This document shows positions 11,020 through 49,446 of a stretch of DNA of 64,000 nt, piece after piece. The position numbers and the translations under genes were made by a program. The notes beneath the pieces are model-generated. The model was not told the origin of the DNA. It saw nothing but the letters and a program-made list of their open reading frames with translations, and did not search any database. The stretch's first letter is position 1. Each line of letters starts with the position of its first letter. The stretch lies in contig CAZNZQ010000003.1 of assembly GCA_964577675.1 (NCBI GenBank), forward strand, positions 3,330-67,329, read 5' to 3'. The DNA is from an uncultured Candidatus Saccharibacteria bacterium (GTDB lineage Bacteria; Patescibacteriota; Minisyncoccia; Phycocordibacterales; UBA5272).

Positions 11020-11024
11020 ATAAT

Positions 11025-29991: not shown

Positions 29992-30072
29992 CCTGCAATC
30001 CTATCAAAACTGTAGGAAAATAGGAATTATTTCCTTATAAAAGAAGTACTCACAAAATGCTATAATACTCTC

Positions 30073-31428
30073 ATGAAAAAACCAGGAATAGTATATATTT
30101 TAGGTGCTGGAGCAAGTGCAAATGCTCTTCCTGTTGTAAGTGAAATGATTGAAAGGTTGCAGATTTTTTATCTTACGCTTTTCATTTTAAGCATCTCTGA
30201 TAGTTTAGAGCCTGAAAATAGTGAACGAACGAAGAAGCTGATGAAAGAACTTAAAGATCTTCTTGGTAATTTGAAAAATAAAAGATCTATTGATACTTAT
30301 GCGAAGGAACTATATATCAAAAAAGACACAAATAAATTAGATATACTAAAAGCATTACTCGGCACATATCTTTCTTTTGAGGAGATGTTTTCTGACGATG
30401 AAATGAGATCTTTTTTTGAAACAAAGTTTCCTAATATCATAGATTCTGACGGTTTAAATGATGACAAGAGAAGTCCTGGAGTATTAAACTCACTTAACAC
30501 AGAAACAAAAAATAAACTTAAACAGCCAGGTAATTCTGGACCAGAATACATTGATGAGTTAAGTTGCTTAAGATATTTATACAGAAAGAATATATCAACT
30601 CAAAAATATCAAAATAATAAAACAAAGATCGACCAAAGATACATTAACTTTTTGATTGATGTTATGGAAGAAGTTGATTCATTTCCTTCTAATATTAAAT
30701 TCTTTTCATGGAATTATGATTCTCAATTTCTCCATGCAATAAAAAATTTAGAGTTTAAAATACCCGTCAAAGATGGGGTTATTGATTACCTTTTTTTGAA
30801 AAGACTAAATGGTGTTGCTGCAAGAAAAGGAATAAATCCTGCCACTATTAGTTCTGGATTAAAAATAGAAGACAAAATTATTGAAGCATCGGACTGTTTC
30901 TGGAGATTAAGCCATCCTGATAGTAGAGACGACAATCTGTTAGTTAAGTTTGCTTTCGAACAAGATCAAAATATAGAGAAACTGGAAGTCTCTTCTCACC
31001 TAGATGATTTTGATTCAGTATCTGACCTAGTTATTATTGGCTATTCTTTTCCATTATCAAATAGAAATATTGATAAAAATGTTTTTGAAGCAATTCTTAA
31101 GAAGGTTGAATATACGAGAGATAAAATAATTAACCTAAAAATTTATATACAAGTTCCACCTGATTCAGATGTAAATAACGATCAGTATATAATTACAAAA
31201 GCAAAAATTACGACAGTTGTTAATTCAATTATTCCTGAACTCGATTTATCAAGCGATGGGAATGAATTATCTCACACAAGAAAAGTCACTCCACAACCAT
31301 GGCCGGAGTCAGATGTTGTTGTTCCTGGGTACAATAAAGCTCCTAAAGACGAAATATTTGAAACACTGAAAATTAAATTTTACAGGCAGTGGGATCCTGT
31401 TAACTTCTATATACCACAATCCTTTTAG
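30073..31428 (+). CDS. SIR2-like (SIR2_2 family) domain protein, candidate NADase-type defence protein
   Basis: N-terminus IVYILGAGASANALP (GAGxS), FFSWNYDSQF (NYD), DLVIIGYSFPLS (GYS). These three motifs characterise the SIR2_2 fold (recollection). Unique ~150-aa C-terminal region. Confidence 0.5.
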   Translation: MKKPGIVYILGAGASANALPVVSEMIERLQIFYLTLFILSISDSLEPENSERTKKLMKELKDLLGNLKNKRSIDTYAKELYIKKDTNKLDILKALLGTYLSFEEMFSDDEMRSFFETKFPNIIDSDGLNDDKRSPGVLNSLNTETKNKLKQPGNSGPEYIDELSCLRYLYRKNISTQKYQNNKTKIDQRYINFLIDVMEEVDSFPSNIKFFSWNYDSQFLHAIKNLEFKIPVKDGVIDYLFLKRLNGVAARKGINPATISSGLKIEDKIIEASDCFWRLSHPDSRDDNLLVKFAFEQDQNIEKLEVSSHLDDFDSVSDLVIIGYSFPLSNRNIDKNVFEAILKKVEYTRDKIINLKIYIQVPPDSDVNNDQYIITKAKITTVVNSIIPELDLSSDGNELSHTRKVTPQPWPESDVVVPGYNKAPKDEIFETLKIKFYRQWDPVNFYIPQSF

Positions 31429-32681
31429 TTTCCGTCTTTTCCAACCTCCACTACTTTAATGTAGTTCATGATCTTATATTTCTCCACTTTCTTACGAAGA
31501 TCTGCATACTTGTACCATTCAGCAGATGTGTGCCAAGTCTTACCATCTTTTTCGTAACTATATCCTCTTGAGTTAGTGAACTTCTTTGGAGGTAAAAAGT
31601 CTTCATTATCTTTTATAAGAAAAACCTGTGCCCAAGTACCTTTACCATAATGGCTTATGGTTCGAGCTTTAAGTATTCCTTGTCTAATCCATTTCTGTAT
31701 CGTTGGGCTTTTTAGATTAAATCTATTTTGAATATCAAAACTTGAATACCAACTATCTCTGAATTTCATCAGTGATCCAGGTATCTCTTTTTTATCAATA
31801 GCTCTCTGACACACAAGACATTTAACACCCCACTTGTCATACCAAAAATCTCCATCTTGATTATATTGACCACAGAGTGAACAAGAAGATCCTCCGTGTC
31901 CTTCAACCGCAAAACCATTTGGTTCCTCTTTCAGTCTTTCTTGCTTCGCTTTTTCATCTTCTTGAAACTCCTTTGTAATCTTGGTTAAGCCTTCTAGACT
32001 CCATTTGGCATCTAGGTACTCTTTACCTTCTTCTTCGGTAAGGCAGTATTTATCTCTATCAGTGGCAAAATTCTCGTCATAGTTATCTTCTTTGTGTCGC
32101 CATGTGTAATCTTCAGATCTCTTATATTTACACTTAGCACATGAATATGTCGTAGTACTTACTTTACCATCATCTTTCATGGTAACTGCTAGTGGTTTAT
32201 CACAATGAGGACACAGGTCTGGTTTTGATCTCCATTCTTCACCATCAGAATAAAAAGCTCTACGAGGGAAACACTTATTTGGACACTCAAACATAAAGAG
32301 TATTCTGTCTTCTTTGTCTAAGTTAGACATTAGCTCTTTGAATATTGGAGTAAGTCTATTTCTGCAAGTAAGACATCTAACATTCTCCGGTGGTTCTGCC
32401 GATTCATACAGCTCATCTTTTTTCCTGTCAGCATCCATCCGTTCTTGAACAGTTTTGTCTCTATTTGCATACCGCTCTCCTTTCTCAAAATAGAGTTGCA
32501 TGTCATGGACCCATTTATTAACTTGCTTCGCTTCCTTCTTAGTTATCTTTTTATCTTTAAGAGCTTTTGGGTCAATATCATCGTCATAAGGTCTATCTAT
32601 TCTACGACAATGATCAACAGTAAATCGGTCATAGCGATCGAGGTATTCTTGTCTATCTTTAAGATAGAGGATTCTCTCCAT
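31425..32681 (-). CDS. Hypothetical multi-zinc-ribbon protein
   Basis: Six CxxC pairs (CLTC, CPNKC, CPHC, CAKC, CSLC, CLVC) and a W/Y-rich C-terminus. Last gene of the minus-strand operon, 26 nt after the 2TM gene. Confidence 0.4.
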   Translation of the reverse strand: MERILYLKDRQEYLDRYDRFTVDHCRRIDRPYDDDIDPKALKDKKITKKEAKQVNKWVHDMQLYFEKGERYANRDKTVQERMDADRKKDELYESAEPPENVRCLTCRNRLTPIFKELMSNLDKEDRILFMFECPNKCFPRRAFYSDGEEWRSKPDLCPHCDKPLAVTMKDDGKVSTTTYSCAKCKYKRSEDYTWRHKEDNYDENFATDRDKYCLTEEEGKEYLDAKWSLEGLTKITKEFQEDEKAKQERLKEEPNGFAVEGHGGSSCSLCGQYNQDGDFWYDKWGVKCLVCQRAIDKKEIPGSLMKFRDSWYSSFDIQNRFNLKSPTIQKWIRQGILKARTISHYGKGTWAQVFLIKDNEDFLPPKKFTNSRGYSYEKDGKTWHTSAEWYKYADLRKKVEKYKIMNYIKVVEVGKDGN

Positions 32682-32707
32682 AACATACTAATTATACTCT
32701 TCTAGTT

Positions 32708-33256
32708 TTATTTTGATAACTCTTTTTTTATTTCCTTAATCGTTTTAAAAGGTTTCTCATCTAAATACTTTGATATTACTACTTTTTGTAGGTGCTTAGC
32801 TTTATATTTTAAGAAGTCTGTGTCTGATATTAGTGGTGTATCGTCCATTATTCTTTTATAAGAATTCAACAATTCTATGCCTTTAGCAATTACAGTGGAT
32901 TCATCGATTTTTGAAATATCTTCTCCACAAAAAACTTTTGCTTCTCTGATCCAGCTACCCCAAGACTTTACTGCGATACTTCTTTCTAGAATCTTTAAAT
33001 CAAAGTTTAATATTGCAGGCACAATACTTGCGATAAAAACACTCGCTGAAAATAAACCTAGGTAAAATGTCTGTACTGGGTTTAGTGAAGAAAAAATAAA
33101 CATCGAAGAAATAGCTGACCCTATTCCTACATACAGTAAGAATATTTTATTAGTCAAAACTATTCTATCTTTAATATTATTTTGTATACTTCTTGTCTGC
33201 TCTGCTTTCCTACAAAGACTTATAATTTCTTGGTGTGTATTATTTTTTGATTCCAT
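32708..33256 (-). CDS. 2TM membrane protein, candidate pore-forming effector (SLATT-like)
   Basis: Two adjacent hydrophobic helices (ILLYVGIGSAISSMFIFSSL, FYLGLFSASVFIASIVPAIL) with soluble N- and C-termini; 1-nt gap to the upstream gene. Confidence 0.4.
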   Translation of the reverse strand: MESKNNTHQEIISLCRKAEQTRSIQNNIKDRIVLTNKIFLLYVGIGSAISSMFIFSSLNPVQTFYLGLFSASVFIASIVPAILNFDLKILERSIAVKSWGSWIREAKVFCGEDISKIDESTVIAKGIELLNSYKRIMDDTPLISDTDFLKYKAKHLQKVVISKYLDEKPFKTIKEIKKELSK

Positions 33257-33257
33257 A

Positions 33258-33731
33258 TTAGTTAAAGTCTAGTCTATCAACCCCCGCAGATTCATGAGTA
33301 TACATTCTTGATAACTCTTGAGATAAATGCGGGAATTCAACATTAGTGCTCGATGGACTCCAGATACTTTTAAGGTTTTCTGTCTGAAAAGAGTATCTTC
33401 TGTCCTCTGGTAGATTTATGTATTCTTTTGAGTACATTATAACCACACTTAATCCATGTCCTTCACCATCCTCCCAATCTATGCCGCCAGGTCGGTCATT
33501 GTGGACTCTATCCGTACTACCAAGTCTATACTTTTTAGCCTTCAAAGGTACTCCATTCACATCATGCATTATAAGTGAAATAGTTTCTGCGTAACCAAAA
33601 ACCATATACTTTTTTACGTCATGTAAAATCTCATAACAGTAATCAATTGTCCAAAGATCAGTTTTTCTTGCTGCAATTTTAAAATCTGTTGCAATACTTT
33701 TGTGAAGTTTATTTAGTTCAGTTTGTGTCAT
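33258..33731 (-). CDS. Hypothetical 157-aa protein, operonic between nucleotidyltransferase and 2TM protein
   Basis: ORF with 1-nt spacing on both sides; no recognised motif. Confidence 0.4.
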   Translation of the reverse strand: MTQTELNKLHKSIATDFKIAARKTDLWTIDYCYEILHDVKKYMVFGYAETISLIMHDVNGVPLKAKKYRLGSTDRVHNDRPGGIDWEDGEGHGLSVVIMYSKEYINLPEDRRYSFQTENLKSIWSPSSTNVEFPHLSQELSRMYTHESAGVDRLDFN

Positions 33732-33732
33732 A

Positions 33733-34719
33733 TTAGTTTTGGATTATGTCTATATTAAAATCTGAACCAAATATTTCCTTCCATAACTCAACCGTCGGCG
33801 TTAAGTACTCCTCCTCTTCAGCAAGCAAGAGTGTCTCAAAAGCAGTATCTGCTTTAATTCTTACAAGATTCCATTCAGTGTTAGAAACATTTTTAACAAT
33901 GTTGTTTTCTTCATGGGTTGGATCTGCAATATAGACATGACTTCCATCGTGTTGATATGTCCCGTATTTTGCGTTAAAAAGAAGAACAGGGAACTTTTTT
34001 TTACTTACAAGTCTAAAGAATCTTAAGATGGCTTCCTGTATATCAGGAACAACTCCTTTATTTATATCTAAATATGACACTATTAGCTCTATTGCAAAAG
34101 ATGACAGTTTAACATTCTGTACATTTCTCCATTTTTTTAAAATGCGGACTATTGTTGAATAGTTTACATTTTGTAATTTCCTATTCGCAATAAACTCTAA
34201 CTGTTTATCAGGAGATGTAAAATATATAGACCCATTCTCATCTGGTTGAGCTACATAATCTTCATCATTAGTTTTTCCAACGGGAACAATATCAACATTT
34301 AATCCAGATTCAACAAACTCCAATCCAGATGTTTTTGTGTTTGCCCAAAAGTCATCGTCACTTTTCTGATGATAGATACTTTTTAGTATCGGTAGTAGTA
34401 AGTCTTTTGTTTGATGAAGAGTCTCGTAACTGTCCGAGTCAATATTTAAAAAGAAAACTAAATCAATGTCTATAGGCACATCATCCTTTGGCTTTATCAT
34501 TGTACCTTTTTTCCATGAACCAGCCTGTAAAACTCTAAGTACTCTTGTATCAATATGTTCCCTTATTTTAGACTGAACAGAAGACACCAAGTAATCTATC
34601 TGATCTTGATGCCTCTTCTTCTCTTCCTTTGAGAATTTAATTCTATCTTTGTAATTTATTAGTTGTGCATTTGTTAAATTCATAAACCTAGTAAAGATCC
34701 GACGGAAGTATCGCAACAA
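33733..34719 (-). CDS. cGAS/DncV-like nucleotidyltransferase (SMODS / CD-NTase-like)
   Basis: AGSWKKGTMIKPKDDVPIDIDLVFF is the Pol-beta-type GS..GT...[DE]h[DE]h active-site pattern as in CD-NTases; third acidic residue in GLNVDIVPV; 328 aa; followed by a 2TM protein. Confidence 0.55.
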   Translation of the reverse strand: MLRYFRRIFTRFMNLTNAQLINYKDRIKFSKEEKKRHQDQIDYLVSSVQSKIREHIDTRVLRVLQAGSWKKGTMIKPKDDVPIDIDLVFFLNIDSDSYETLHQTKDLLLPILKSIYHQKSDDDFWANTKTSGLEFVESGLNVDIVPVGKTNDEDYVAQPDENGSIYFTSPDKQLEFIANRKLQNVNYSTIVRILKKWRNVQNVKLSSFAIELIVSYLDINKGVVPDIQEAILRFFRLVSKKKFPVLLFNAKYGTYQHDGSHVYIADPTHEENNIVKNVSNTEWNLVRIKADTAFETLLLAEEEEYLTPTVELWKEIFGSDFNIDIIQN

Positions 34720-35308
34720 CTACCCCTTGGATCGTGCAATTATTTGTTAATATGATTGGCTTATGGCTTTTGTCCTTGGACTTTGGTCGAAGAATAACAA
34801 CACCATTACCTTTCTCTAGAATCTTCACGGTTGCTTCATCATTGATAAGAGCAACTACTTTTTGTCCATCATCTGCTGTTTCTTGTTGTCGCACCAATAG
34901 TAAGTCACCATCATTAATTCCTGCATTATTCATTGATGTTCCTTTTGCACGAAGAATGAAATACTTTGAACCTGTCCTTGCTAGTGCAGTTGATACAGGT
35001 ATAAGTGTCTCAATATTTTCTTCTGCAAAAATAGGCATACCACACGCAACCGACCCTACTAGGGGAATGTTAATCGTGCTTATCGATTGTGTTGAATGAG
35101 TGCCTATAAGTTTCAATAACCTTCCTTCTTTCTTTATAACCTTTGCTTTAATTAAGCGGTTGATCAAAAGACTTGCTGAACGAGGAGACGAATCACCAGT
35201 TACTTTATTTATTTCAACTAGAGTTGGACTCTTCCCATAATGGATAATCTTGTTGCGGATAAGAGCAAAAGCTTTCTTGTCTTTGTCACTAAGGTTATTT
35301 GGTATCAT
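34688..35308 (-). CDS. lexA: LexA-type repressor (winged HTH + S24 peptidase)
   Basis: N-terminal LexA-like wHTH; GSVACGMP; LRAKGTSMNNAGINDGDLLLV (Ser nucleophile); ATVKIL (Lys). Its 3' end overlaps the nucleotidyltransferase ORF by 32 nt. Confidence 0.75.
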   Translation of the reverse strand: MIPNNLSDKDKKAFALIRNKIIHYGKSPTLVEINKVTGDSSPRSASLLINRLIKAKVIKKEGRLLKLIGTHSTQSISTINIPLVGSVACGMPIFAEENIETLIPVSTALARTGSKYFILRAKGTSMNNAGINDGDLLLVRQQETADDGQKVVALINDEATVKILEKGNGVVILRPKSKDKSHKPIILTNNCTIQGVVVAILPSDLY

Positions 35309-35367
35309 GGTATAATTTAGTATAAATAACTATATACTTTTATGCAAGTCTTTGTTACAATAAAAAC

Positions 35368-36024
35368 ATGTCAGAAGAAAGTATGAGAATTTTAAAGGAA
35401 TCCTATCAAGCCATATTCAATGGACCCTCTTTTGCTGCCTTTCAAAGAGTTTCAAAAGAAACAGAAGAACACAGAGCTAGAATGCAGAATGTTTTTGAAC
35501 AGATAAAACCAAGTATTGATATTATGTCTAATTTTCAAGAACAAATGCGTGAAGCTAAGGAGTCTTATGTTTTCAAACTACCGTCGTATACTCTCCCCGA
35601 CAGGTCTGTTTTTATACAATCATATAAAGCACCCGAACAAAATATCCCTTCAGTAAAAAATAGAAGCTCGTATCACTTACCTATTGGATCATCGTGGGCA
35701 AAATTAACAATAAAGTTTTTTGATGGTCACACAGTAAAAGTAAGTCACTCAGACCTACCTATAAAAACATTTGATTACAAAGATATGGGATTTGCTGATC
35801 ATAAAACCAATAACCCTAATAATAAATGGAAATTATTGCAGTCCATGGCTGAAAATGGAGGTAGAATAACTAATGCTAAATACGATAGAAAATTTAGTAG
35901 AAATATTAAATATGAACTTAATTTAGGATTAAAAACTTTTTTCAATATGACTGAAAATCCTATATCAAACTACACCAAGAAAGAAGGTTATGTTGCGTCA
36001 TTTGTTCTCATGAAGGAGGGGTAA
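35368..36024 (+). CDS. Hypothetical protein (divergent from lexA)
   Basis: 218-aa ORF, no motif. Confidence 0.4.
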   Translation: MSEESMRILKESYQAIFNGPSFAAFQRVSKETEEHRARMQNVFEQIKPSIDIMSNFQEQMREAKESYVFKLPSYTLPDRSVFIQSYKAPEQNIPSVKNRSSYHLPIGSSWAKLTIKFFDGHTVKVSHSDLPIKTFDYKDMGFADHKTNNPNNKWKLLQSMAENGGRITNAKYDRKFSRNIKYELNLGLKTFFNMTENPISNYTKKEGYVASFVLMKEG

Positions 36025-36064
36025 ATTGTCATTTTTCAATAAAGTTTAATTTTTCTTAAGCACC

Positions 36065-36100
36065 AAAAACTTATTCATTATGAATAAGTTTTTTGTTTTT
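36065..36100. terminator. Bidirectional rho-independent terminator
   Basis: aaaaaCTTATTCAttaTGAATAAGtttttt. Confidence 0.7.
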
Positions 36101-36117
36101 ATCATAACAAAATTGTC

Positions 36118-36139
36118 ATATCGTCATTAATGACGATAT
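36118..36139. promoter_or_regulatory. 22-bp perfect palindrome, candidate operator upstream of the ParB-methyltransferase gene
   Basis: ATATCGTCATTAATGACGATAT reads identically on both strands; 42 bp upstream of the 36181 start. Confidence 0.45.
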
Positions 36140-36180
36140 AGGGTAGGAAAGGCAATAATAATCTTTCCATAAATAGCCCT

Positions 36181-37449
36181 ATGCAAAAATTAGTTTGGAA
36201 AGCAGAAGTAAGGAAAGTTGAAGATTTGGTGATTTGGGATCAAAATCCGAGATCTATAAGCACAGCAAGATTTTCAAAGCTGATTAAGAGAATTAAGGAT
36301 CGTGGTTTTCATAGTTCAATTGTTATTGATACAGATAATACTATTTTATCTGGTAACCAAAGGAAGGAAGCGTTACTTCATCTTGGTATCAAAGAGGTTA
36401 ATGTATTAGTACCTAATCGTAAACTTACCACTGATGAAAGAAATAAAATTGCGCTCGAAAGTAACTTGAACGATGGTGAATGGAATTTTGAAGCATTAAA
36501 GTTATTTGAACTGGATACACTACTGGACATTGGTTTCGATCAAATCGAACTCTCTAAGTTCTGGGATGAAGACAAAGATATTAAAGAAGATACATTTGAT
36601 GTTGAGAAAGAGTTAAAGAAAATTATTAACCCTGTTACAAAACTTGGTGATGTAATTTATCTTGGTAATCATAAGATTATTTGTGGAGACTCTACAAAAA
36701 AAGAAACACTCACAAAGTTATTCAAAGGAGAGAAAGCATCGATGATTTATAGTGACCCTGTCTATAACATTTCTGTGAACTACTCAGGTGGAATTGGGGG
36801 CAAAAAAGACTATGGAGGTAACGTAAATGACACTCGTACTTTTGAAGAGTACAAAACATTTATCAGTGATAGTTTGAAAAGTGCGTTATTTGTATCACAC
36901 GACAATACACACTGCTTTTATTATTGCGATCAGATATTTATCGGACTAATTCAAGAAGTGTATAGGTCTCTCGGAATAAATAACAAGCGTGTATGCCTAT
37001 GGCTAAAAAACTCACAAAATCCAGTCCCTAAGGTGTTCTGCAATAAAGCGTACGAACCTGCAGTATACGGAACTCGTGGAAGACCGTACCTTGCAAATAA
37101 TGTAACAGACCTTAATGAAGTAATGAACAAAGAATTTACTACAGGCAATGATCTCATTTCTCAAGTTGATGACTTCCTTGAAATATGGACAGCAAAACGT
37201 CTTGCTTCTAAAGATTATCAACATGCAACTTCTAAACCAATCACCTTACACGAAAAAGCAATCAAACGCTGTACAAAACCTAATGACATTATTCTCGATA
37301 GTTTCCTAGGCTCAGGTAGCACTCTCCTTGCAGGAGAACAGCTCGGGCGAAGAGTGTATGGGTGTGAGCTAGAGCCAAAATTCTGTGACTTAATTGTGAA
37401 GCGTTATGAGGTACTTACAGGTAAGAAACCGATCTATGAAAAAGAATAA
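36181..37449 (+). CDS. ParB-like nuclease domain fused to N6-adenine/N4-cytosine DNA methyltransferase (phage-type)
   Basis: N-terminal ParB/Srx-like domain (ILSGNQRKEAL). C-terminal MTase motif IV IYSDPVYN (DPPY variant) and motif I DSFLGSGSTLLAGEQLGRRVYGCELEP. Confidence 0.7.
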   Translation: MQKLVWKAEVRKVEDLVIWDQNPRSISTARFSKLIKRIKDRGFHSSIVIDTDNTILSGNQRKEALLHLGIKEVNVLVPNRKLTTDERNKIALESNLNDGEWNFEALKLFELDTLLDIGFDQIELSKFWDEDKDIKEDTFDVEKELKKIINPVTKLGDVIYLGNHKIICGDSTKKETLTKLFKGEKASMIYSDPVYNISVNYSGGIGGKKDYGGNVNDTRTFEEYKTFISDSLKSALFVSHDNTHCFYYCDQIFIGLIQEVYRSLGINNKRVCLWLKNSQNPVPKVFCNKAYEPAVYGTRGRPYLANNVTDLNEVMNKEFTTGNDLISQVDDFLEIWTAKRLASKDYQHATSKPITLHEKAIKRCTKPNDIILDSFLGSGSTLLAGEQLGRRVYGCELEPKFCDLIVKRYEVLTGKKPIYEKE

Positions 37450-37837
37450 AATTCAAGATCAATTCCTAGAAGAGCTTGCGAAAGTGCCAATAGTACAAAT
37501 TGCTTGTGAAAAGTGTAGTTTATCTCGCAATAGTATCTATCGTTGGAGAAAAGAAGATAAAGTGTTTGAAAAGAAAATGGATGAAGCATTATCAAGTGGT
37601 GTTGCTTTTGTGAATGATATGAGTGAATCACAATTACTTACCCTTATCAAAGAGAAGAGTTACTCAGCTATCTCTTTTTGGCTTCGTCATAGAAATGATA
37701 ACTACAAAGATAAAATTGAAATTACTACAAAAGAAGAAAGTGGGGAACTTTCTCCTTCTCAAGCAAAAATTGTAAGACATGCCCTTAAGTTAGCTTCAAT
37801 TACAAAACAGAAATCTATTAGAAAAATTAATAAATAA
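37436..37837 (+). CDS. Putative phage terminase small subunit (HTH)
   Basis: 134 aa with an HTH-like CSLSRNSIYRWRKED, immediately upstream of terL; start chosen at the internal Met (ORF 37406..37837). Confidence 0.45.
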   Translation: MKKNKIQDQFLEELAKVPIVQIACEKCSLSRNSIYRWRKEDKVFEKKMDEALSSGVAFVNDMSESQLLTLIKEKSYSAISFWLRHRNDNYKDKIEITTKEESGELSPSQAKIVRHALKLASITKQKSIRKINK

Positions 37838-37842
37838 CAAGT

Positions 37843-39345
37843 ATGAAATACAACAGCATTGATAAGGGATTATTAAACAAAATGATGAAAGACAAATTAG
37901 TAAGAACGACTATCACTAAAGATAGTTTCTTCTACTTCTTTCATTTCTATTACGCTCACTATGTAAAGTACGAGACGGCAGACTTTCAAAAAGAGATTAT
38001 ACATCTTCTTGAGAAAGGAAATAACGAGAACCTATATGTTGTCGCTTTTCGTGGATCAGGTAAATCAACTATGGCGACAACAGCTTACCCAATATGGGCG
38101 ATACTTGGTAAACAGCAGAAGAAGTTTTGTATCATCTTTTGTCACACACGAATACAAGCAAAACAACATATGATGAATATTAAACAAGAACTAGAGAATA
38201 ATGATTTACTCAAGAAAGATCTCGGACCATTTCAAGAGGAATCTGATGAGTGGGGTTCATATTCTTTGGTGTTCAAAAAACACGGTGCTCGAATTTCTGT
38301 TGCCTCAACCGAACAAAGTATTCGTGGTATTCGTCATAACGAACATCGTCCAGATTTAATAATTTGTGACGATGTGGAAGATGTACAATCGGCTAAAACA
38401 AGGGAAGGTAGAAACAAGACATACAACTGGTTACGAGGTGAGGTAATCCCAACAGGAGACAGAAATACACGGCTTATCCTTATCGGTAACTTGCTTCATG
38501 AAGACTCTCTCCTAATGAGGATTAAAGAAGAGATTAAGAACGGTAAAGCAAAAGGCACTTTTAAGCAGTACCCACTTCTTGATCAAGATAATAACTGTCT
38601 ATGGACTGGGAAGTATCCGACAGAAAAAGATATAGAAGATGAGAAATTAAAAGTGGCTAGTGAAATATCGTGGCAACGAGAGTATCTTCTTCGTATTATA
38701 CCAAGCGATGATCAAGTTATTTATCCTGAATGGATAAAGTTCTACGATGAACTGCACCCCACTTCTCATAAAGCGTACCGTGGTACATATGCAGGTGTTG
38801 ACCTTGCAATATCTACTAGTGACGCCGCTGACTTCACTTCCGTTGTTATGGCTCGTGTATATGGTAGAAGAGATAAATTGCGAATCTATATCCTTCCTAA
38901 TCCTATAAACAAGAAGTTAAACTTTCCTGCTCAGGTTGATCTATTAAAAGATATTAAGAATACTCAAATGCCAAAATCAACAGATAATTTATTTGTTGAA
39001 AGTGTTGCATATCAAGAAGCTCTTCCTCAGATGCTAGAAATGCAAGGAATTAAAGCAGAAGCAATAAAACCTAAAGGAGACAAAAGAACAAGACTTGCAC
39101 TTACTTCTACTTCTATTAAATCAGCGATTGTTAAATTTCCACGACATGGATGTGAAGAATTGATTGAGCAACTGGTAGGTTTTGGTGTAGAAAAACATGA
39201 CGACCTTGCTGATGCTTTTTCTCTGCTTGTTAATACAACACTAGATAAGCATGCAAAAGAAGGAACTATTATTATGGCTTGGATTGGTCCTGGAACAGGT
39301 AGTGACGATATTATTCGTCACTCTGATTATGTAGATGTAGGATAA
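37843..39345 (+). CDS. terL: Phage terminase large subunit (Terminase_6-like)
   Basis: Walker A VVAFRGSGKST, ATPase N-domain, C-terminal RNaseH-like nuclease with acidic residues (DDLADAF); 500 aa. Confidence 0.7.
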   Translation: MKYNSIDKGLLNKMMKDKLVRTTITKDSFFYFFHFYYAHYVKYETADFQKEIIHLLEKGNNENLYVVAFRGSGKSTMATTAYPIWAILGKQQKKFCIIFCHTRIQAKQHMMNIKQELENNDLLKKDLGPFQEESDEWGSYSLVFKKHGARISVASTEQSIRGIRHNEHRPDLIICDDVEDVQSAKTREGRNKTYNWLRGEVIPTGDRNTRLILIGNLLHEDSLLMRIKEEIKNGKAKGTFKQYPLLDQDNNCLWTGKYPTEKDIEDEKLKVASEISWQREYLLRIIPSDDQVIYPEWIKFYDELHPTSHKAYRGTYAGVDLAISTSDAADFTSVVMARVYGRRDKLRIYILPNPINKKLNFPAQVDLLKDIKNTQMPKSTDNLFVESVAYQEALPQMLEMQGIKAEAIKPKGDKRTRLALTSTSIKSAIVKFPRHGCEELIEQLVGFGVEKHDDLADAFSLLVNTTLDKHAKEGTIIMAWIGPGTGSDDIIRHSDYVDVG

Positions 39346-39346
39346 T

Positions 39347-39808
39347 TTAGTGGTTTACACTATAGCCATTATCACTAGCCCATTCCTCAACTGCATCTTC
39401 AATCAAAGATGAATCTATTTCTACATCCCAGTATCCATCCGAACCGTACCCATCTCCTGTTCCATCAGAATTTAATTCTGCATTGACGTATATGTAACCT
39501 CCGTTTGGAAAATGGATTGATTCAACTTCGCCATTTGAAATATCTGCATCTAATGTGTAATAGCCATTACTCTTATGCGAGTACACTTCAACACTTTCAG
39601 TTCCATTGATGTATTCCTTGATCTCATCCCAGTGCTCATCTAAAGCATCATCATAATTGATACTTCTTTCCTTGGAATATCTAGTTGGGGGTTCTTGTTT
39701 ATATTCTGTTTTATAAGAATTATAATTAGTTTTTACTTCTTCTTTTCCAGAATTATGAAATACGGCACTACCAACTATAAGGAGAATAATTATGATAATT
39801 GTAGGCAT
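39347..39808 (-). CDS. Hypothetical secreted/membrane-anchored D/G/Y-rich protein
   Basis: N-terminal hydrophobic anchor IIIIILLIVGSAVF; no motif. Confidence 0.35.
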   Translation of the reverse strand: MPTIIIIILLIVGSAVFHNSGKEEVKTNYNSYKTEYKQEPPTRYSKERSINYDDALDEHWDEIKEYINGTESVEVYSHKSNGYYTLDADISNGEVESIHFPNGGYIYVNAELNSDGTGDGYGSDGYWDVEIDSSLIEDAVEEWASDNGYSVNH

Positions 39809-39870
39809 AATATTTTTAGAATTATAATTACATAAGCTGACATATTAAACCTATTCTACATCTAACTAGA

Positions 39871-41208
39871 TTAGATACAAGTATTCGGTATATGTAATGA
39901 TATTCTTTTATTTGATAACAGTATTTTAGAATTAAGACACTTAAAAAATTCTCTCTTCTCCTCCATTTCTCCCTCTAACAAAATAAACTTAGCATAGTTA
40001 CGAATATCAATATCTTTTACAGATATTGGTGTTTTGTTTCCTAGTAACATATATTGAAACTTTTTGAATCTTTTGACCTCATTAGTTATCTTTTCTTTCA
40101 TTGGCACTATCTGAATATCAAGATCATCAATAAGATCTTTAAGTTGATCTACTAAATCCTCCTCATTAAGAAACCCACAAGGACAATTCTGGTCTCTTGT
40201 TCTCGTGCACTTGTAATAGACGTATCTGTGAACATTACCATTTTGTTGATGTTTAAATTTCTCATCTGCTGTGATACCTGAACCACATAATCCACATGTC
40301 ATTATTCTTGTAAAAGCGAATTCCTTTTGTTCGGTTTTAGGTTCTAATATTTGACTCTTAATTTTCTCTTGAACTAAATCAAAGAGTTCTTTTGTGATAA
40401 TTGGAATGTGTGATCCGTTATACCAATTTCCTGAGTTTTTAGGGAATTCAAACCTTCCGTAATAAAAATGGTTTTGTAGTAATCGATAAAAGTTACCTAA
40501 ACTTAAATGGATATTGTTCTCAGTCTTAAAATCTTTATCATCTTTAAGCCAAGTCCACACCTTTCTACCTGACCATCCGTCATACCCAACTTTTTCAAAC
40601 ATCTCTTTAATAATAGGTGCTCTATCTTTGTCTATAATGGATTCGCATTTCTGATCCATTCTTTTAAACTTGGTATATCCAGTAGGAGGACGACATGGCC
40701 ATAAACCCATCTCTACTCTTGCCCTTAGACCTCTTTTAACATTGATACTTTTGTTATCATTCTCTAACTTTGCTTGAGAACAAAGAATCATAAGTAAAAA
40801 CTTTTCATTAGGAGAATTAGAAAATGTTTGTCCGTATGTTTGTATATGGATTAATTTTCTTTGATCCATTAAATCTACTAAACTTCCTAAATCTCCAGCA
40901 TTACGACTTAATCTATCTGGTGCCCAAGTTAATACTCCATTAAACTTTCCTTGATCTATATCTTGTAACAGCTGTTTATACACTGGTCGCTGACCTGAAG
41001 CTTTAGCACTATGTGATTCTCTTTTAACTTCCACTACATACAACCCTAAACGCTCTGCTATGGCTTCCATTTCTTTAATCTGTGAATCTATCGACAAAGC
41101 TTGCATTTCATCTGATTCAGTAGATTTTCTAGCATATAAACAATATTTAACTCTTACTTCTGACAAAACTATGTTTCCATGAATCTTTCCAATTGTTCTT
41201 GTTTCCAT
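39871..41208 (-). CDS. Large serine recombinase (resolvase/integrase family) with C-terminal zinc ribbon
   Basis: CLYARKSTESDEMQALSIDSQ (catalytic Ser), WAPDRLSRN, recombinase domain, C-terminal CGLCGS...CPCG zinc ribbon; 445 aa. Confidence 0.8.
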   Translation of the reverse strand: METRTIGKIHGNIVLSEVRVKYCLYARKSTESDEMQALSIDSQIKEMEAIAERLGLYVVEVKRESHSAKASGQRPVYKQLLQDIDQGKFNGVLTWAPDRLSRNAGDLGSLVDLMDQRKLIHIQTYGQTFSNSPNEKFLLMILCSQAKLENDNKSINVKRGLRARVEMGLWPCRPPTGYTKFKRMDQKCESIIDKDRAPIIKEMFEKVGYDGWSGRKVWTWLKDDKDFKTENNIHLSLGNFYRLLQNHFYYGRFEFPKNSGNWYNGSHIPIITKELFDLVQEKIKSQILEPKTEQKEFAFTRIMTCGLCGSGITADEKFKHQQNGNVHRYVYYKCTRTRDQNCPCGFLNEEDLVDQLKDLIDDLDIQIVPMKEKITNEVKRFKKFQYMLLGNKTPISVKDIDIRNYAKFILLEGEMEEKREFFKCLNSKILLSNKRISLHIPNTCI

Positions 41209-41555
41209 ATTATATTAATGACAGAGATCACTAGTCTTGCTAAGTCTATGCAGAACTAAAAAAGACGACATTATGAGATTAGGAAGTTACCTACAAAAAC
41301 ACCTTAGCAAAAGACCTTTTATGCGATATAATCAATAGATTAATACAAGAGTATTAAGACGGAACAATTTGCAGTAGCCTAAACCATTGGTTTCCAATGG
41401 CATGGTGAATTAAGTCTAATCAAAGCCAAAAAACCCATCATGTGGGATTTGCTTTGATTAGCCATACCTGGAAACGGGTATGGAGGTCGCAAGACCTCAC
41501 TCACGTGGTGGGCTTTTTGCTTTCCATAAGAGTTTTACCCAAATATAAAAACTTT

Positions 41556-42422
41556 ATGAATATTTTAAAAAAGATACTTTACGGTATAGGAGGGTTATGT
41601 ACATTATTTGTTATTACAGCACTCATCGTTCCGACTCCTAAAAAAGAGGAATCAGTTGCAATTGTAACAACAGCGACAACGACTAAAGAAAAAGAAGTAG
41701 TAGCTACTACAACTAAACCAGTTGTACTTGATAAAAAAGTAGCAGTAACTCAAGCAGTAGTTACAGTTCCAAAAACTGATTCTCAATATACTTATTATTC
41801 TATTACTGATGTCGTAGATGGCGACACAGTTAAGATAAATATTAATGGCACAATCGAAACTTTACGTCTAATTGGTTTAGATACTCCTGAAACTGTTGAT
41901 CCAAGAAAGGAGGTCCAGTGTTTTGGTAAAGAAGCTTCTAATAAAGGAAAGGAGTTACTTACTGGTAAAAAGGTAAGACTTGAAAAAGACACTACTCAAG
42001 GAGAAAAGGATAAGTACGGAAGAACGCTAGCGTATATCTATACTGAAAGTGGAATCTTTTATAACAAGTATATGATCGAACAAGGATATGCTCATGAGTA
42101 TACATATAACTCTGCGTATAAGTATCAAGCAGAATTTAAACAAGCTGAGAAAACTGCTGAAGCAAACAAAGTAGGACTTTGGTCACCAAGTACTTGTAAT
42201 GGCGTTACAACATCAGCACCTAAAACAACTCAAACGACCACATCTACTACTCAAGTCTCTGGGAAATACTACACTTCTTCTGCTTCTAATGCCACAAGAT
42301 ACTACCCTGATACATGCCCAGCGTGGCAAGATCTTTCAAAGTCTAATTTGAGGACATTCAACTCACTTGATGAATTGCTCGCTGTGTATCCTAAGAGAAC
42401 TATTGCTGATAGTTGTAAGTAA
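41556..42422 (+). CDS. Membrane-anchored thermonuclease (SNase-family) with Thr-rich linker and C-terminal extension
   Basis: VVDGDTVKI...LRLIGLDTPET...GRTLAYIY SNase motifs; N-terminal TM; probable start at the internal Met (ORF 41442..42422). Confidence 0.7.
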   Translation: MNILKKILYGIGGLCTLFVITALIVPTPKKEESVAIVTTATTTKEKEVVATTTKPVVLDKKVAVTQAVVTVPKTDSQYTYYSITDVVDGDTVKININGTIETLRLIGLDTPETVDPRKEVQCFGKEASNKGKELLTGKKVRLEKDTTQGEKDKYGRTLAYIYTESGIFYNKYMIEQGYAHEYTYNSAYKYQAEFKQAEKTAEANKVGLWSPSTCNGVTTSAPKTTQTTTSTTQVSGKYYTSSASNATRYYPDTCPAWQDLSKSNLRTFNSLDELLAVYPKRTIADSCK

Positions 42423-42486
42423 AAAAGAAAGCTATTATTTTAAGGTAAAATTTGATAAAATAGCAAGAACAATTTAATAAAACTTT

Positions 42487-43005
42487 ATGGTCACACTATA
42501 CCCCTTAAATACTATTTTAACGGTCGGACTTGTAACAGTTTTTCTCTTTCTCCTGCTTCCTCTCATCTTTAATAAGCGTAGACACAAAAGCGGTACAGAT
42601 AAATTTGAAGAGCTGTATAAAAAAATTAGTGAGGATATCAAATATTCTGTAGCTCCAAAGTTTATAGAATTATCACAAGAAACAAATGATCTTTTCGATC
42701 TCTCCGTTGAGATTTGGCGAATGGAACAACGCATTATTAAATCTTCTTCTGACTTACCAGAGAATCAACTTAAAGGGTTAGAAAATTCTATACAAAAACT
42801 AAAACGATATATTGGTAGATACGATATTGAAGTAGTGGATTATAAAAATGTGAAATACAATGAAGGTCTTAACCTTGAAGTTCTGTCTATAGAAAAAGAT
42901 TCTTCACTATCTGAATCAATTATAAAGGAGACGGTCGAGCCGACGGTTATGCATAAAGGTCAGGTGGTTCGTAAAGCAAAGGTAATTTTAATAAAAAATA
43001 ATTAG
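42487..43005 (+). CDS. GrpE-like nucleotide-exchange-factor domain protein with N-terminal TM anchor
   Basis: TM at residues ~10-30, coiled region, C-terminal HKGQVVRKAKVILI resembling the GrpE beta-domain signature (G..lR.A.V.V); sits directly upstream of the Hsp70-like gene. Confidence 0.4.
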   Translation: MVTLYPLNTILTVGLVTVFLFLLLPLIFNKRRHKSGTDKFEELYKKISEDIKYSVAPKFIELSQETNDLFDLSVEIWRMEQRIIKSSSDLPENQLKGLENSIQKLKRYIGRYDIEVVDYKNVKYNEGLNLEVLSIEKDSSLSESIIKETVEPTVMHKGQVVRKAKVILIKNN

Positions 43006-43011
43006 GACTCT

Positions 43012-45525
43012 ATGTCTAACCAACAAAATATTTCAATAGGTATCGATCTTGGAACAACTAATTCGTCTATTGCAATAAATAACAATGGCAATATTGAGAT
43101 TGTAAAAAAAGCGGGAGGAGTAGAGTACACTCCGTCAGTTTTTGGTTTCAATAAAGCTGGCAATAAGGAGGTTGGACAAAAAGCTTACGACAGTTTTTAC
43201 AAAAGCCCTTCAGAAGAAGATACAAAAAACTATAAGACTGAAATTAAGAGACTGATGGGTACTTCAGAATCTTTTTACTTTGAGAGAGCAAATACAAAAA
43301 TGGGACCAGAAGAAATATCTGCTGAAATTCTAAAGAGTTTAAAAGAGGATGTACTAAGAAAATACCCAGACTTTAATACTATTTCTGCTGTAATAACCGT
43401 CCCTGCAGCTTTTTCTGTCTTGCAATCAGAAGCAACAAAGCGAGCAGGAAATCTTGCTGGATTTAAACACGTTGTTTTGCTACAAGAACCAATCGCTGCC
43501 GCTGTTGCTTATGGATTCACAAACATTAAAAATGAGAACTGGCTTATTTATGATCTTGGGGGTGGTACATTTGACGTTGCGTTAGTTGCCTCAAAAGATA
43601 GAGCCCTGTCAGTACTTGGACATAACGGAGATAACTTTCTTGGTGGTAAAAATTTCGACTTGGAAATTGTAGATAAAGTAATTGTGCCAAAGATTTTGGA
43701 AAAGTTTACTATCAGTAATTTTAATAGAGGTAATGAAAAATATAAAGGAGTATTTTCACAATTAAAATTCTTTGCTGAAACAGCAAAGATTGAACTTTCT
43801 GAGTATGAAAAAACTTCAATCATGGTAGAAAATATTGGAAAGGATGATAATGGAGATGAAATTTTTCTAACCATCAATTTTTTGAGAAAGGACTTTGAAA
43901 ATCTAATCAAACCCATGATTGATCGTACTATTGAGCTTTCAAAAGAAACCCTTAAGGATGCAGGAATTAAAAGTAGCTCCGTTACAAGAGTCGTTCTTGT
44001 TGGTGGACCAACTCAGATTCCTTATATCAGAGAAAGAATAGAAGGAGACCTTAAAGTTATAGCAGATGCAACGGTAGACCCTCTTACTGTTGTTGCAAGA
44101 GGAGCTTGTGTTTTCGGAATTGGTCAAAAAATTCCAAAAGAATTTACAGAAGTTTCTTCTTCAAAAATTGATGAGGGTGTGATTCAAATTAATCTTAACC
44201 ATGAATCGCTCACATCAGATACTGAAGAAACAGTTAGTGGTATCATTGATGACTTAAAAGAATCAAGTGACGAATACTACGTACAGATACAATCAGATAG
44301 TGGTTTTTATAATGGTTCAAAGATTAAGTTAAAAAATGGTAAATTTTTTGACACCGTATCTGTTGAGCAAAATAAATCAAATGTTTACTGGGTCTACCTA
44401 TTTGATAAGGAAGGAAATTCTACTCCTATCAGTCCAGACTCATTTATGATTACACATGGGCTTTCAGTTTCGGGTGCTCCTTTACCTCATTCGATAGGTG
44501 TTATTGTTGCTAAAAAAGATCATGTGAGAAATATTGCCTCAAATGTATGCGAAATTATTTTTGAAAAAGGATCTATTCTTCCCGTAAAAAAAGTTATTGA
44601 TGTATACAAAACATCAAGAAAACTTAAGAAAGGAGAAGATAATAATTTAGATATTACGGTTGTTGAGGGCGAATCTGATATTCCTGATCGTAACTCATAT
44701 TTATGTGATTTAGGTATAAACGGTAAGGATTTACCTCACGATCTTCCAGAAGGAACCCCATTAGAGATATCTATAGAGATGAATGAGTCTCGTGAAGTCA
44801 AAGTTACTACATATATCCCTTTAATTGATATGACTTTTAATGCTCGTTCTACCATGCAAGATGAGTCCGTTGAAGTAAAAACCATCGAGTATGATTTAAA
44901 AGTTCAAACTGAAAGAGCTCAGACCGTTTCTGAGAATTGCTCTAGTGAAGAAAAGAATAAACTCAATACTACAATTAACTCAGTAGCAAATAGTCTAAAA
45001 GGTGCCCATGTTGATGAAGATGAAAAACGCAAAGCAAATAAACAACTTAAGGATCTAAAGGTATCAATTGATCAGCTTGAAAAGGAAAAAGAGATGCCGC
45101 AGTTGATTAATGAGTTTAATGAGAGCTTTGCAAAAGTTCAAAAAATAATAATTGATCTTGGTAATGATAAAGATAAGGTTCAACATGAAGAGCGTCTTAA
45201 AAAGATGAAAGAAGAGGGAGACAAAGCAATATCTGAAAATGATAGTGTTCTCTTAATGAGAGTAAATGAACAGATCGGTGAGCTAGGAACTAAAGCAGTA
45301 TTCTCAAATCCTGCGGCTTGGGTCTACCAATTTGGTCAGATTACGAATGGTAGTAAAAAGTTTATTAATGAAAAAGAAGCTGAATATTATACAGAAAAAG
45401 GAAAGCGTGCAATTGAGCTTAGTGACACCGAGGAACTAAAACGGTGTGTTCATAATTTATTACTTCTTCTTCCTTCTGATAGTTATGAGGGTCCGAAAAA
45501 TCATCTTTCGGGTATATCACGATAA
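43012..45525 (+). CDS. Non-canonical Hsp70-family ATPase (837 aa)
   Basis: Hsp70 NBD motifs IGIDLGTTNSSIA, DLGGGTFDVALV, VVLVGGPTQIPYIRE. The ~450-aa C-terminus is not a canonical DnaK substrate-binding domain/lid. Confidence 0.7.
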   Translation: MSNQQNISIGIDLGTTNSSIAINNNGNIEIVKKAGGVEYTPSVFGFNKAGNKEVGQKAYDSFYKSPSEEDTKNYKTEIKRLMGTSESFYFERANTKMGPEEISAEILKSLKEDVLRKYPDFNTISAVITVPAAFSVLQSEATKRAGNLAGFKHVVLLQEPIAAAVAYGFTNIKNENWLIYDLGGGTFDVALVASKDRALSVLGHNGDNFLGGKNFDLEIVDKVIVPKILEKFTISNFNRGNEKYKGVFSQLKFFAETAKIELSEYEKTSIMVENIGKDDNGDEIFLTINFLRKDFENLIKPMIDRTIELSKETLKDAGIKSSSVTRVVLVGGPTQIPYIRERIEGDLKVIADATVDPLTVVARGACVFGIGQKIPKEFTEVSSSKIDEGVIQINLNHESLTSDTEETVSGIIDDLKESSDEYYVQIQSDSGFYNGSKIKLKNGKFFDTVSVEQNKSNVYWVYLFDKEGNSTPISPDSFMITHGLSVSGAPLPHSIGVIVAKKDHVRNIASNVCEIIFEKGSILPVKKVIDVYKTSRKLKKGEDNNLDITVVEGESDIPDRNSYLCDLGINGKDLPHDLPEGTPLEISIEMNESREVKVTTYIPLIDMTFNARSTMQDESVEVKTIEYDLKVQTERAQTVSENCSSEEKNKLNTTINSVANSLKGAHVDEDEKRKANKQLKDLKVSIDQLEKEKEMPQLINEFNESFAKVQKIIIDLGNDKDKVQHEERLKKMKEEGDKAISENDSVLLMRVNEQIGELGTKAVFSNPAAWVYQFGQITNGSKKFINEKEAEYYTEKGKRAIELSDTEELKRCVHNLLLLLPSDSYEGPKNHLSGISR

Positions 45526-45530
45526 AATAT

Positions 45531-46991: not shown

Positions 46992-46995
46992 AAAT

Positions 46996-47592
46996 ATGTC
47001 AGAACATTTAAATTTTGAAACAGACTTTTTGGATAAAAGCTCTCCTGTAAAAAAGAATCACCCTCAGAAAACCCACACTCCTGATAAGGAGAGTACGGGT
47101 TCATATAATTGGAAAAAGATTTTATGGATTGGAGGAGGAGTGTTATTCTTTATTTTTATAATTGCTTCTGACGATGGTAGTTCAAGTAGCACACCTGCTG
47201 CTTCTAATTCAAATAGTTATAAACCAACATCTAATCTAAATTCCTCTGATGAAGTTGCTACAGGTCAGTATATTTGTTCACGTTCCAACCATACACGAGC
47301 CGGTGAGCTTGAACCGAGTGAGTTTGAAAAAAATAGCTTAGAATCTGAAAAGAATCAACTCTCATCTGAGACTGATAGTTTATCATCAGAAAAAAGCCAA
47401 TTAGAAAATGAGTATGTAGACGAATCAGACCAGTCTGCAATTGATACCCATAATTCAGCTATAGACGATTTAAATAGTAGACTGTCTTCTTACCGTGCTA
47501 GACGTTCACAATATTCTGCTTCTATTGATGCTTATAATGCTAAAGTTGATACATATAATAGCTTTTTAACTCAGAACTGTAGACCAAAATAA
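46996..47592 (+). CDS. Hypothetical single-pass membrane protein with Ser-rich and coiled-coil regions
   Basis: TM ILWIGGGVLFFIFIIA, then S-rich segment and heptad-like SLESEKNQLSSETDSLSSEKSQLENEY. Confidence 0.4.
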   Translation: MSEHLNFETDFLDKSSPVKKNHPQKTHTPDKESTGSYNWKKILWIGGGVLFFIFIIASDDGSSSSTPAASNSNSYKPTSNLNSSDEVATGQYICSRSNHTRAGELEPSEFEKNSLESEKNQLSSETDSLSSEKSQLENEYVDESDQSAIDTHNSAIDDLNSRLSSYRARRSQYSASIDAYNAKVDTYNSFLTQNCRPK

Positions 47593-47598
47593 TTTACC

Positions 47599-48678: not shown

Positions 48679-48691
48679 TTACATAACTACA

Positions 48692-49006: not shown

Positions 49007-49030
49007 GGTGACTCTTAATCATCTTCATAT

Positions 49031-49438: not shown

Positions 49439-49446
49439 AAAATAGA

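Follow-up and report, generated by a model that had tools for sequence, protein, structure and literature searches.

The window considered here is a stretch of 64,000 nucleotides from an uncultured Candidatus Saccharibacteria bacterium (assembly GCA_964577675.1, contig CAZNZQ010000003.1, positions 3,330 to 67,329 of the forward strand). On its minus strand, a gene of the LexA repressor family is followed by a putative anti-phage system that signals through cyclic oligonucleotides (CBASS). An earlier note on this DNA had described four packed genes with a Zn-ribbon gene 26 nt further on. All coordinates of that description were reproduced, and the cluster is real. Its genes and the control region ahead of them are as follows.

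35309-35367, 59 nt: divergent control region between lexA and the divergently oriented gene
34688-35308, minus strand: lexA-like gene, first gene of the operon and predicted repressor of a mobile element
33733-34719, minus strand: nucleotidyltransferase open reading frame (ORF) with a TTG start, overlapping lexA by 32 nt
33733-34683, minus strand: the same nucleotidyltransferase, of the cGAS/DncV-like kind (CD-NTase), read from Met13, 316 aa, with its ATG at 34683, 4 nt past the lexA stop
33258-33731, minus strand: HORMA ORF, 157 aa, 1-nt gap to the cyclase gene
32708-33256, minus strand: two-transmembrane (2TM) ORF, 182 aa, 1-nt gap to the HORMA gene
31425-32681, minus strand: multi-Zn-ribbon/helix-turn-helix (HTH)-like ORF, 418 aa, 26-nt gap to the 2TM gene

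A scan of the minus strand from lexA to the end of the 2TM gene found no terminator-like site. The order lexA-cyclase-HORMA-2TM is repeated in six further contigs of metagenome-assembled genomes (MAGs) of Patescibacteria (L001-L005 and L007), with cyclase identities of 65-79%, and is therefore not a chance juxtaposition; the placement of lexA directly upstream of the cyclase, as first described, is thus a conserved one. The Met13 start, offered by the earlier note as an alternative, is backed by a public gene model of 316 aa (P0001) and by all 17 other aligned homologues, which begin at or after Met13. Judged from these alignments, it is the real start of the cyclase.

The identification of the nucleotidyltransferase as a CD-NTase was borne out. 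The 316-aa protein matches NCBIfam NF041116 CBASS_cyclase_a at 238.3 bits (cutoff 200), the PADLOC Cyclase model PDLC00808 at 1.9e-74 and Pfam SMODS at 2e-9, and its nearest sequence in the PDB is CdnC of E. coli MS115-1 (6p80), aligned over the full length at 1e-18. An AlphaFold2 model (pLDDT 82.6) is closest in fold to CdnC structures (6p8v_G, 6u7b_A and 6p80; TM-scores 0.71-0.73), followed by CdnD, CdnB and DncV. The motif GSWKKGT...DIDIDLV is present, and residues G55/S56, D72/D74 and D131 (316-aa numbering) are invariant in 18 cyclase homologues down to 40% identity; D131 is the third catalytic acid, whose absence had been named beforehand as a point that would speak against a CD-NTase. 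By sequence and predicted fold, the protein belongs to the CD-NTases, is CdnC-like and retains its whole catalytic triad.

The 157-aa protein, which had been left unassigned as a possible new component, belongs instead to a known family. It matches Pfam PF18138 bacHORMA_1 at 66.4 bits (cutoff 35.6) and the PADLOC HORMA model at 1.4e-22. The best PDB match of its AlphaFold2 model (pLDDT 91.3) is the HORMA protein of E. coli MS115-1 (6p8v_H, TM-score 0.77) in the CdnC:HORMA:Trip13 complex 6p8v, and next in order come the complex with HORMA-deltaN (6u7b) and, after it, Mad2 and Rev7. Direct searches of PDB sequences with the HORMA and 2TM proteins gave nothing useful.

The most unusual features of the CBASS itself, which lay outside the earlier note, are the absence of Trip13 and a shortened HORMA protein. 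A scan for cyclase relatives, with one genome taken per species, gave 46 loci (L001-L046). In every sufficiently long locus among L014-L046, a Trip13 orthologue directly follows the HORMA gene (335-362 bits with PADLOC TRIP13, 300-640 bits with phmmer); the one exception is L045 from Archangium, an outlying branch. In four of these loci, Trip13 is followed by the same 2TM family, so that relatives of the form cyclase-HORMA-Trip13-2TM exist at about 40% identity. The window and L001-L013 carry cyclase-HORMA-2TM, and no Trip13 was found in their operons or within 10 kb on either side. The possibility that the sole AAA protein of the window (47599-48678) is a Trip13 that has moved away was tested and dismissed, since the protein reaches 118 bits as IetA-like against 52 bits as TRIP13 and lies 14 kb off, on the other strand and in a different gene cluster. 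A neighbour-joining tree built from the cyclases groups the Trip13-less loci into one clade that is nested among loci with Trip13. The clade has members from Patescibacteria, Bacteroidota, Leptospiraceae, Hyphomicrobiales and "Ca. Tenebribacter", and the LexA-linked loci of Patescibacteria form a single subclade inside it.

The HORMA proteins differ accordingly at their N-termini. Those linked to Trip13 open with a Ser/Thr/Tyr-rich tail, for example MSYNTYTATSTYTV; another sequence by which the N-terminal tail is named is MSYNTYTATSTYT. The Trip13-less ones begin 10-12 residues later, right at helix alpha-A. When a profile of the short form was run against 1.84 billion representative proteins, 136 relatives were obtained; the alignment starts at residue 1 for about nine clusters of full-length proteins (155-160 aa), and nearly all of the weaker matches, of 163-171 aa, align only from their own residue 10-16. 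In the E. coli system, the pore loops of Pch2/Trip13 grip HORMA residues 2-10, and an engineered HORMA-deltaN:CdnC complex is no longer switched off by Pch2 (Ye et al., 10.1101/694695). Because the tail gripped by Pch2/Trip13 is absent, the HORMA of this clade is a delta-N form that arose in nature, the unfoldase having been lost along with its handle. By profile and model, the 157-aa protein is a bacterial HORMA of this natural delta-N type, starting at helix alpha-A. Of the hallmarks of type III CBASS, the HORMA gene beside the cyclase is present, and the Trip13/Pch2 AAA+ gene in the operon and the N-terminal handle of HORMA are missing; by gene content, the system is a putative type III-like CBASS that has lost Trip13. 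The literature searched gave no description of a CBASS variant with a delta-N HORMA and no Trip13, which is absence of evidence only.

Outside Patescibacteria, the Trip13-less loci have neither lexA nor a recognisable regulator and often lie beside restriction-modification genes. A search for regulators upstream of these systems found just restriction-modification specificity subunits and unrelated genes. LexA-free systems of this kind are seen in Bacteroidota, Leptospiraceae and Hyphomicrobiales. Since the Trip13-less clade also occurs without LexA, the loss of Trip13 predates the linkage to LexA on the cyclase tree and is independent of it.

The 182-aa protein encoded by the last gene of the module has two hydrophobic segments (about residues 32-58 and 61-90 in a Kyte-Doolittle scan) and matches two PADLOC models of the CBASS "Effector 2TM" (PDLC00684 at 1.9e-15 and PDLC00681 at 6.1e-14); its orthologues sit after HORMA in L001-L013. 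The proposal of a 2TM effector was thus upheld with respect to CBASS effectors in general, and fell short with respect to the SLATT family, whose NCBIfam models stay below their curated cutoffs (SLATT_4 at 36.1 against 55 bits, SLATT_5 at 16.7 against 60). The protein is a predicted SLATT-like 2TM membrane effector that resembles SLATT proteins and is no certified member of the family. The catalytic residues of a CD-NTase and an effector gene, two marks of a CBASS, are found together in one operon.

The upstream gene matches TIGR00498 lexA in NCBIfam at 133.8 bits (cutoff 110.95) and Peptidase_S24 at 6e-28; Pfam LexA_DNA_bind taken alone is below cutoff (16.1 against 23.7). Residues 7-201 align end to end with residues 5-196 of E. 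coli LexA (7b5g), and the motifs of the two proteins correspond as VACG/VAAG, GTSM/GMSM and ATVK/VTVK. The dyad of Ser125 and Lys162 and the scissile position Cys89-Gly90 are invariant in 18 LexA relatives. Cys89-Gly90 stands at the Ala-Gly scissile position of E. coli LexA, and Cys-Gly is the bond used by UmuD. These alignments indicate a full-length LexA-family repressor with a winged HTH (wHTH) domain and an S24 peptidase domain.

The 59-nt control region holds a promoter on the lexA strand, with a -35 box TTGCAT (35347-35342), a 17-nt spacer and a -10 box TATACT (35324-35319). The -10 box ends 10 nt ahead of the ATG, so that the mRNA would be nearly leaderless. A perfect palindrome, GTATA-N8-TATAC, at 35320-35337 covers the spacer and the -10 box, and a further TATAC stands 1 nt ahead of the lexA ATG in the window and in most related loci. 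The palindrome has one copy in the 64 kb against 0.07 expected, and copies with one mismatch are at chance level; the window thus contains one candidate LexA operator only. Of 22 sequences, namely the window and those of 21 loci, 18 have the same layout of promoter and palindrome ahead of lexA whatever the cargo behind it, and the remaining four (L049 and L051-53) have a variant with one mismatch. The palindrome fits a candidate LexA operator governing both divergent promoters.

What stands behind lexA is not always the CBASS described above. LexA relatives far outnumber cyclase relatives, with 3,718 at an E-value of 1e-20 or better, and the best 120 of these all have at least 70% identity and are spread over many divergent MAGs of Patescibacteria. 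The genes following lexA were surveyed in ten such relatives that were looked up, in the loci of the genome scan and in one IMG/VR contig (L054), which carries the only relative found in scans of viral contigs with LexA. All ten looked-up relatives and the IMG/VR contig have the same backbone and a cargo operon on the same strand that starts 3-12 nt past the lexA stop. The following cargoes were found.

The window, L001-L005 and L007: CdnC-like cyclase, HORMA and 2TM protein
L051-53 and L055-57: a different CD-NTase with a Cap15-type effector
L058-60: a 444-aa SMODS/AGS-C cyclase (PADLOC 610 bits) with three small genes
L054: two ThsB-like TIR proteins with an 8xMP membrane protein
L047-49 and L061-65: metallo-beta-lactamase (MBL)-fold proteins resembling the candidate system PDC-M48, in several versions
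L066-67: a Peptidase_C14 (caspase-like) cassette

Three CD-NTase systems are thus found at this position, along with one TIR system, one caspase-like system and several of the MBL-fold kind. This variety bears directly on the proposal of the earlier note that the signalling system sits under a LexA repressor analogous to CapH/CapP, yet distinct from them. A rival reading takes LexA for a dedicated regulator, a third solution beside CapH/CapP and CapW, that keeps the CBASS off until DNA damage and has replaced Trip13 as the off-switch. The lexA gene does lie 4 nt upstream on the same strand, the pairing is kept in seven loci of Patescibacteria including the window, LexA has all of its residues for self-cleavage, the -10 box of the lexA promoter lies within the palindrome's reach and overlaps it, and Trip13 is absent. 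Yet at least five other, non-homologous cargo operons (CD-NTase with Cap15, the 444-aa cyclase, TIR with 8xMP, MBL-fold and Peptidase_C14) stand behind LexA relatives that have 70-93% identity and share this promoter and palindrome, and the same Trip13-less CBASS exists without LexA or any recognisable regulator in the three lineages named above, its loss of Trip13 being older than, and independent of, the linkage. A dedicated regulator is thus unlikely, and LexA is not a CBASS-specific counterpart of CapH/CapP. As its distribution indicates, the LexA protein serves as repressor to an integrative element of phage origin that is seen in MAGs of Patescibacteria.

A few further features of the cargo position were observed. 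An ORF of 69-70 aa stands between lexA and the cargo in L005 (9785-9997), L007 (9780-9992), L051 (838-1047) and L058 (9625-9834), and its copy in L005 has a borderline match to DUF3892. In L062, a gene on the minus strand (9841-11196) is convergent with the MBL-type cargo and encodes a 451-aa protein that has a Shedu SduA_C domain, which suggests that defence genes also gather at the far side of the cargo position.

The element itself lies in a low-GC island of the window. Its extent and main genes other than the cargo are as follows.

30,000-49,500, approximate extent: low-GC mobile island
35368-39345, plus strand: divergent operon of the element, with a variable 218-aa gene, a ParB-N6/N4 methylase, TerS and TerL
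36181-37449, plus strand: ParB-N6/N4 DNA methylase (Pfam N6_N4_Mtase 7.9e-28; PHROGs DNA methyltransferase/ParB 5e-78)
37406-37837, plus strand: small terminase (PHROGs terminase small subunit 7e-10)
37843-39345, plus strand: large terminase (PHROGs terminase large subunit 1.8e-78)
39871-41208, minus strand: large serine recombinase, the integrase (Pfam Resolvase, Recombinase and Zn_ribbon_recom; PHROGs integrase 3e-63)
41376-41498, plus strand: LOOT RNA motif (Rfam RF03000, 91.2 bits against a gathering score of 46.4)

The GC content of the island is 32-37% (about 33%) against 41-45% (about 43%) outside, and a tRNA-Glu gene lies near its right end (49515-49588). No flanking direct (att) repeats were found around the island, so that its boundaries are approximate. 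The same divergent gene order stands opposite lexA in L002-L005, L007, L047-49, L054-57 and L061-66, and the serine recombinase is conserved in the related loci. Because the chromosomal flanks differ among contigs that carry the same lexA backbone, the backbone is a mobile unit.

This context also bears on whether lexA could be the chromosomal SOS regulator of the host, with the CBASS a member of the host SOS regulon and the phage-like neighbours incidental. The protein does pass the NCBIfam equivalog cutoff and aligns over its full length with E. coli LexA, and several sources label close relatives "repressor LexA". However, the gene sits inside the low-GC island and is always tied to the same integrase, terminase and methylase genes while the chromosomal flanks vary; the palindrome occurs nowhere else in the 64 kb; and the occurrence of relatives with at least 70% identity across many divergent MAGs fits a mobile gene. 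The mobile-element context argues against LexA as the master regulator of the host SOS regulon, and we regard this explanation as very unlikely.

An intact temperate prophage would have structural genes as well as the integrase, LexA repressor, TerS and TerL that are seen here, and none of the island ORFs tested in searches of Pfam and PHROGs matched a family of capsid, portal or tail proteins. This leaves either a satellite-like element or a prophage in decay. If decayed, the cluster might be an inert remnant, with genes intact by chance and neither regulated nor active; besides the lack of capsid, portal and tail genes in the island, a split integrase or truncated terminase in L047 and L058-60 points this way. 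Against it, the four ORFs are intact with their catalytic and cleavage residues conserved, the contigs retain both the four-gene module and the backbone, at 65-79% protein identity and with the gene junctions preserved, and the cargoes that share the position are different yet intact, which speaks for selection and exchange that still go on. An inert remnant is accordingly most improbable.

The Zn-ribbon gene after the 2TM gene had also been proposed as a new CBASS component. Its orthologue in L049 (9107-10366, E-value 1e-169) follows a different cargo, consisting of an MBL-fold protein and a 228-aa protein, and this synteny rules out a role as a CBASS accessory; the gene rather belongs to the backbone of the element and marks the far side of the cargo position. 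The protein has weak matches only, to HTH_17 in Pfam and mad1 in PADLOC, and a promoter-like site of its own is found at 32719-32691.

Taken together, the cluster is best read as an anti-phage CBASS of a Trip13-less HORMA lineage, carried as cargo and co-transcribed at a low level with the self-cleaving LexA of an integrative element, like rexAB with lambda cI (probability about 0.7). A prophage-like island whose defence genes are expressed from the immunity region, as the earlier note had suggested among its possibilities, is thus the best-supported reading, the island being terminase-bearing and without virion genes. The reading builds on the observed gene content, protein families, catalytic residues, synteny, variability of the cargo, and conserved promoter and palindrome. 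Several points weigh against it. All of the regulation and all of the activity in it are inferred from sequence. The palindrome may just as well consist of two -10 hexamers of divergent promoters placed back to back, one TATACT per strand, and an internal promoter may exist within lexA. An element with terminases, an integrase and a repressor and no recognisable virion genes may be a decayed prophage whose regulation is perhaps dead. The effector stays below the curated cutoffs for SLATT. Lastly, LexA control is not needed for tolerance of the system, because Trip13-less CBASS outside Patescibacteria has no LexA.

Under the reading of a CBASS carried as cargo, a LexA dimer of the element would bind GTATA-N8-TATAC in the 59-nt region, silencing the methylase/terminase operon and throttling its own promoter. 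The lexA, cdnC, HORMA and 2TM genes would then share one near-leaderless transcript and be expressed steadily at a low level, in the manner of rexAB with lambda cI. Upon infection, a phage-derived peptide would close HORMA, and closed HORMA would bind and activate the CdnC-like cyclase. The cyclase would produce a cyclic oligonucleotide, for which the analogy to E. coli CdnC suggests cyclic tri-AMP as a possibility, and this nucleotide would activate the 2TM effector, which would breach the membrane and abort the infection. Without a reset by Trip13, activation would be irreversible, and the threshold would be set by protein dosage and ligand binding alone; dosage would matter because activation could not be reversed. 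After DNA damage, a RecA filament would induce self-cleavage of LexA at Cys89-Gly90 and derepress both promoters, and the CBASS would rise together with the element's own genes.

A wider proposal, which is tentative and rather less likely than not to hold in all its parts, is that satellite-like integrative elements in Patescibacteria captured a self-cleaving LexA as their switch. A recombination-prone cargo position 3-12 nt behind lexA would wire interchangeable abortive-infection systems to one promoter that senses damage or induction, the delta-N HORMA CBASS would work without an unfoldase reset at a dosage set by the repressor, and LOOT would be a functional part of the element.

In the current model of HORMA proteins in bacteria and eukaryotes, Trip13/Pch2 keeps HORMA open and resets it. 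Whether a HORMA-cyclase switch can stay off and fire once without an unfoldase is therefore put to a test by nature in the Trip13-less clade. Little is known of the mobile elements and immune repertoire of Patescibacteria, which are ultra-small bacteria; the position after the LexA-type repressor gene adds a new example to the defence hotspots, and reading the genes after lexA of this clade suggests a simple route to new defence systems. Furthermore, SOS sensing would be linked to CBASS expression by a route unlike those of CapH/CapP and CapW, and the orphan LOOT RNA motif gains a genomic home.

Among known systems, the cyclase and HORMA protein are closest to those of the type III CBASS of E. 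coli MS115-1, CdnC-HORMA-Trip13-NucC, with which the window shares the order cyclase-HORMA-effector (Ye et al., 2020, 10.1101/694695). Unlike that system, the window has no Trip13/Pch2, its HORMA lacks the N-terminal tail of 10-12 Ser/Thr/Tyr-rich residues, and its effector is a 2TM membrane protein instead of the nuclease NucC. CapH/CapP (Lau et al., 10.1101/2022.04.27.489752) and CapW (Blankenchip et al., PMC9122588) are similar in that a repressor gene adjoins the CBASS and that the repressor is expected to be inactivated after DNA damage, with CBASS expression going up. The window differs in having one self-cleaving LexA, with wHTH and S24 domains, rather than an HTH repressor with a separate metallopeptidase or a WYL factor, and its lexA is on the same strand, first in the operon and not CBASS-specific. 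Indeed, the neighbouring genes gave no Pfam or PADLOC match to an HTH repressor with an adjacent metallopeptidase or to a WYL-domain factor.

The arrangement also has older parallels. In lambda cI-rexA-rexB, defence genes lie downstream of the maintenance repressor and are co-transcribed with it, and P2 phages and P4 satellites have a fixed hotspot in the backbone where different defence systems replace one another. The window shares with them defence genes behind a repressor, a fixed backbone position and exchangeable systems; it differs in that the repressor is of the LexA type and not the CI type, the host lineage is Patescibacteria, the element has terminases and no virion genes, and the cargo junction is just 3-12 nt from the repressor stop. 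In the lexA2-imuA-imuB-dnaE2 mutagenesis cassettes, reportedly described by Abella and co-workers in 2007, a second lexA gene is likewise first in an operon and the downstream genes are thus damage-inducible. Unlike those translesion polymerases, the cargo here is abortive-infection immunity and varies between elements. CBASS, HORMA, LexA and defence hotspots in mobile elements are all known parts. As far as the literature was searched, the CBASS clade with a delta-N HORMA and no Trip13, the defence cargo position fused to a LexA-type repressor gene and the setting in Patescibacteria appear to be new; no description of a LexA-linked CBASS or of CBASS in Patescibacteria was found there.

The backbone of the element shows some further features. 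LOOT lies beside the serine recombinase gene in seven of eight related loci scanned (L004, 2466-2598; L005, 4862-4988; L007, 4452-4583; L047, 2879-3004; L049, 1557-1678; L058, 6234-6356; L061, 4737-4870). It is divergent from the recombinase gene and directly upstream of a variable gene, which encodes SNase or unknown proteins of 148-282 aa. It looks like a backbone feature of the element family, and is possibly the leader of a second cargo position or overlaps a recombination site. The main text of the paper introducing the motif has no discussion of LOOT. The serine recombinase-LOOT-SNase block (39871-42422 in the window) is inverted against the terminase genes relative to L047, L049, L004, L005, L007 and L061. 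On the terminase side of the element in L055 (1932-3335) lies a diversity-generating retroelement pair, an RVT_1 reverse transcriptase with bAvd, and two ORFs in L054 (3035-4435) are like this pair in size and orientation.

Other genes of the island are less easily placed. A 451-aa ORF on the plus strand (30073-31428) with a GAGAS-type N-terminus converges on the Zn-ribbon gene; it has a weak PADLOC SIR2 match (0.0015) and no Pfam family, and may be a further defence gene at the island edge. At 42487-48678, also on the plus strand and inside the low-GC island, genes for a 172-aa protein, an Hsp70-like ATPase, a 486-aa protein, a 198-aa protein and the IetA-like AAA ATPase (PADLOC 118 bits) form a same-strand cluster. 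The Hsp70-like ATPase has 837 aa and matches Pfam HSP70 at 2.9e-75 over residues 9-369 only, and the N-terminus of the 486-aa protein resembles, by eye, a degenerate J domain. The cluster is possibly a further module for defence or stress of a kind not yet described. The right edge of the island has a DUF2726/DUF559 endonuclease-like gene (49031-49438, plus strand), and after it, just ahead of tRNA-Glu, comes a perfect inverted repeat of 19 nt (49443-49461 and 49465-49483).

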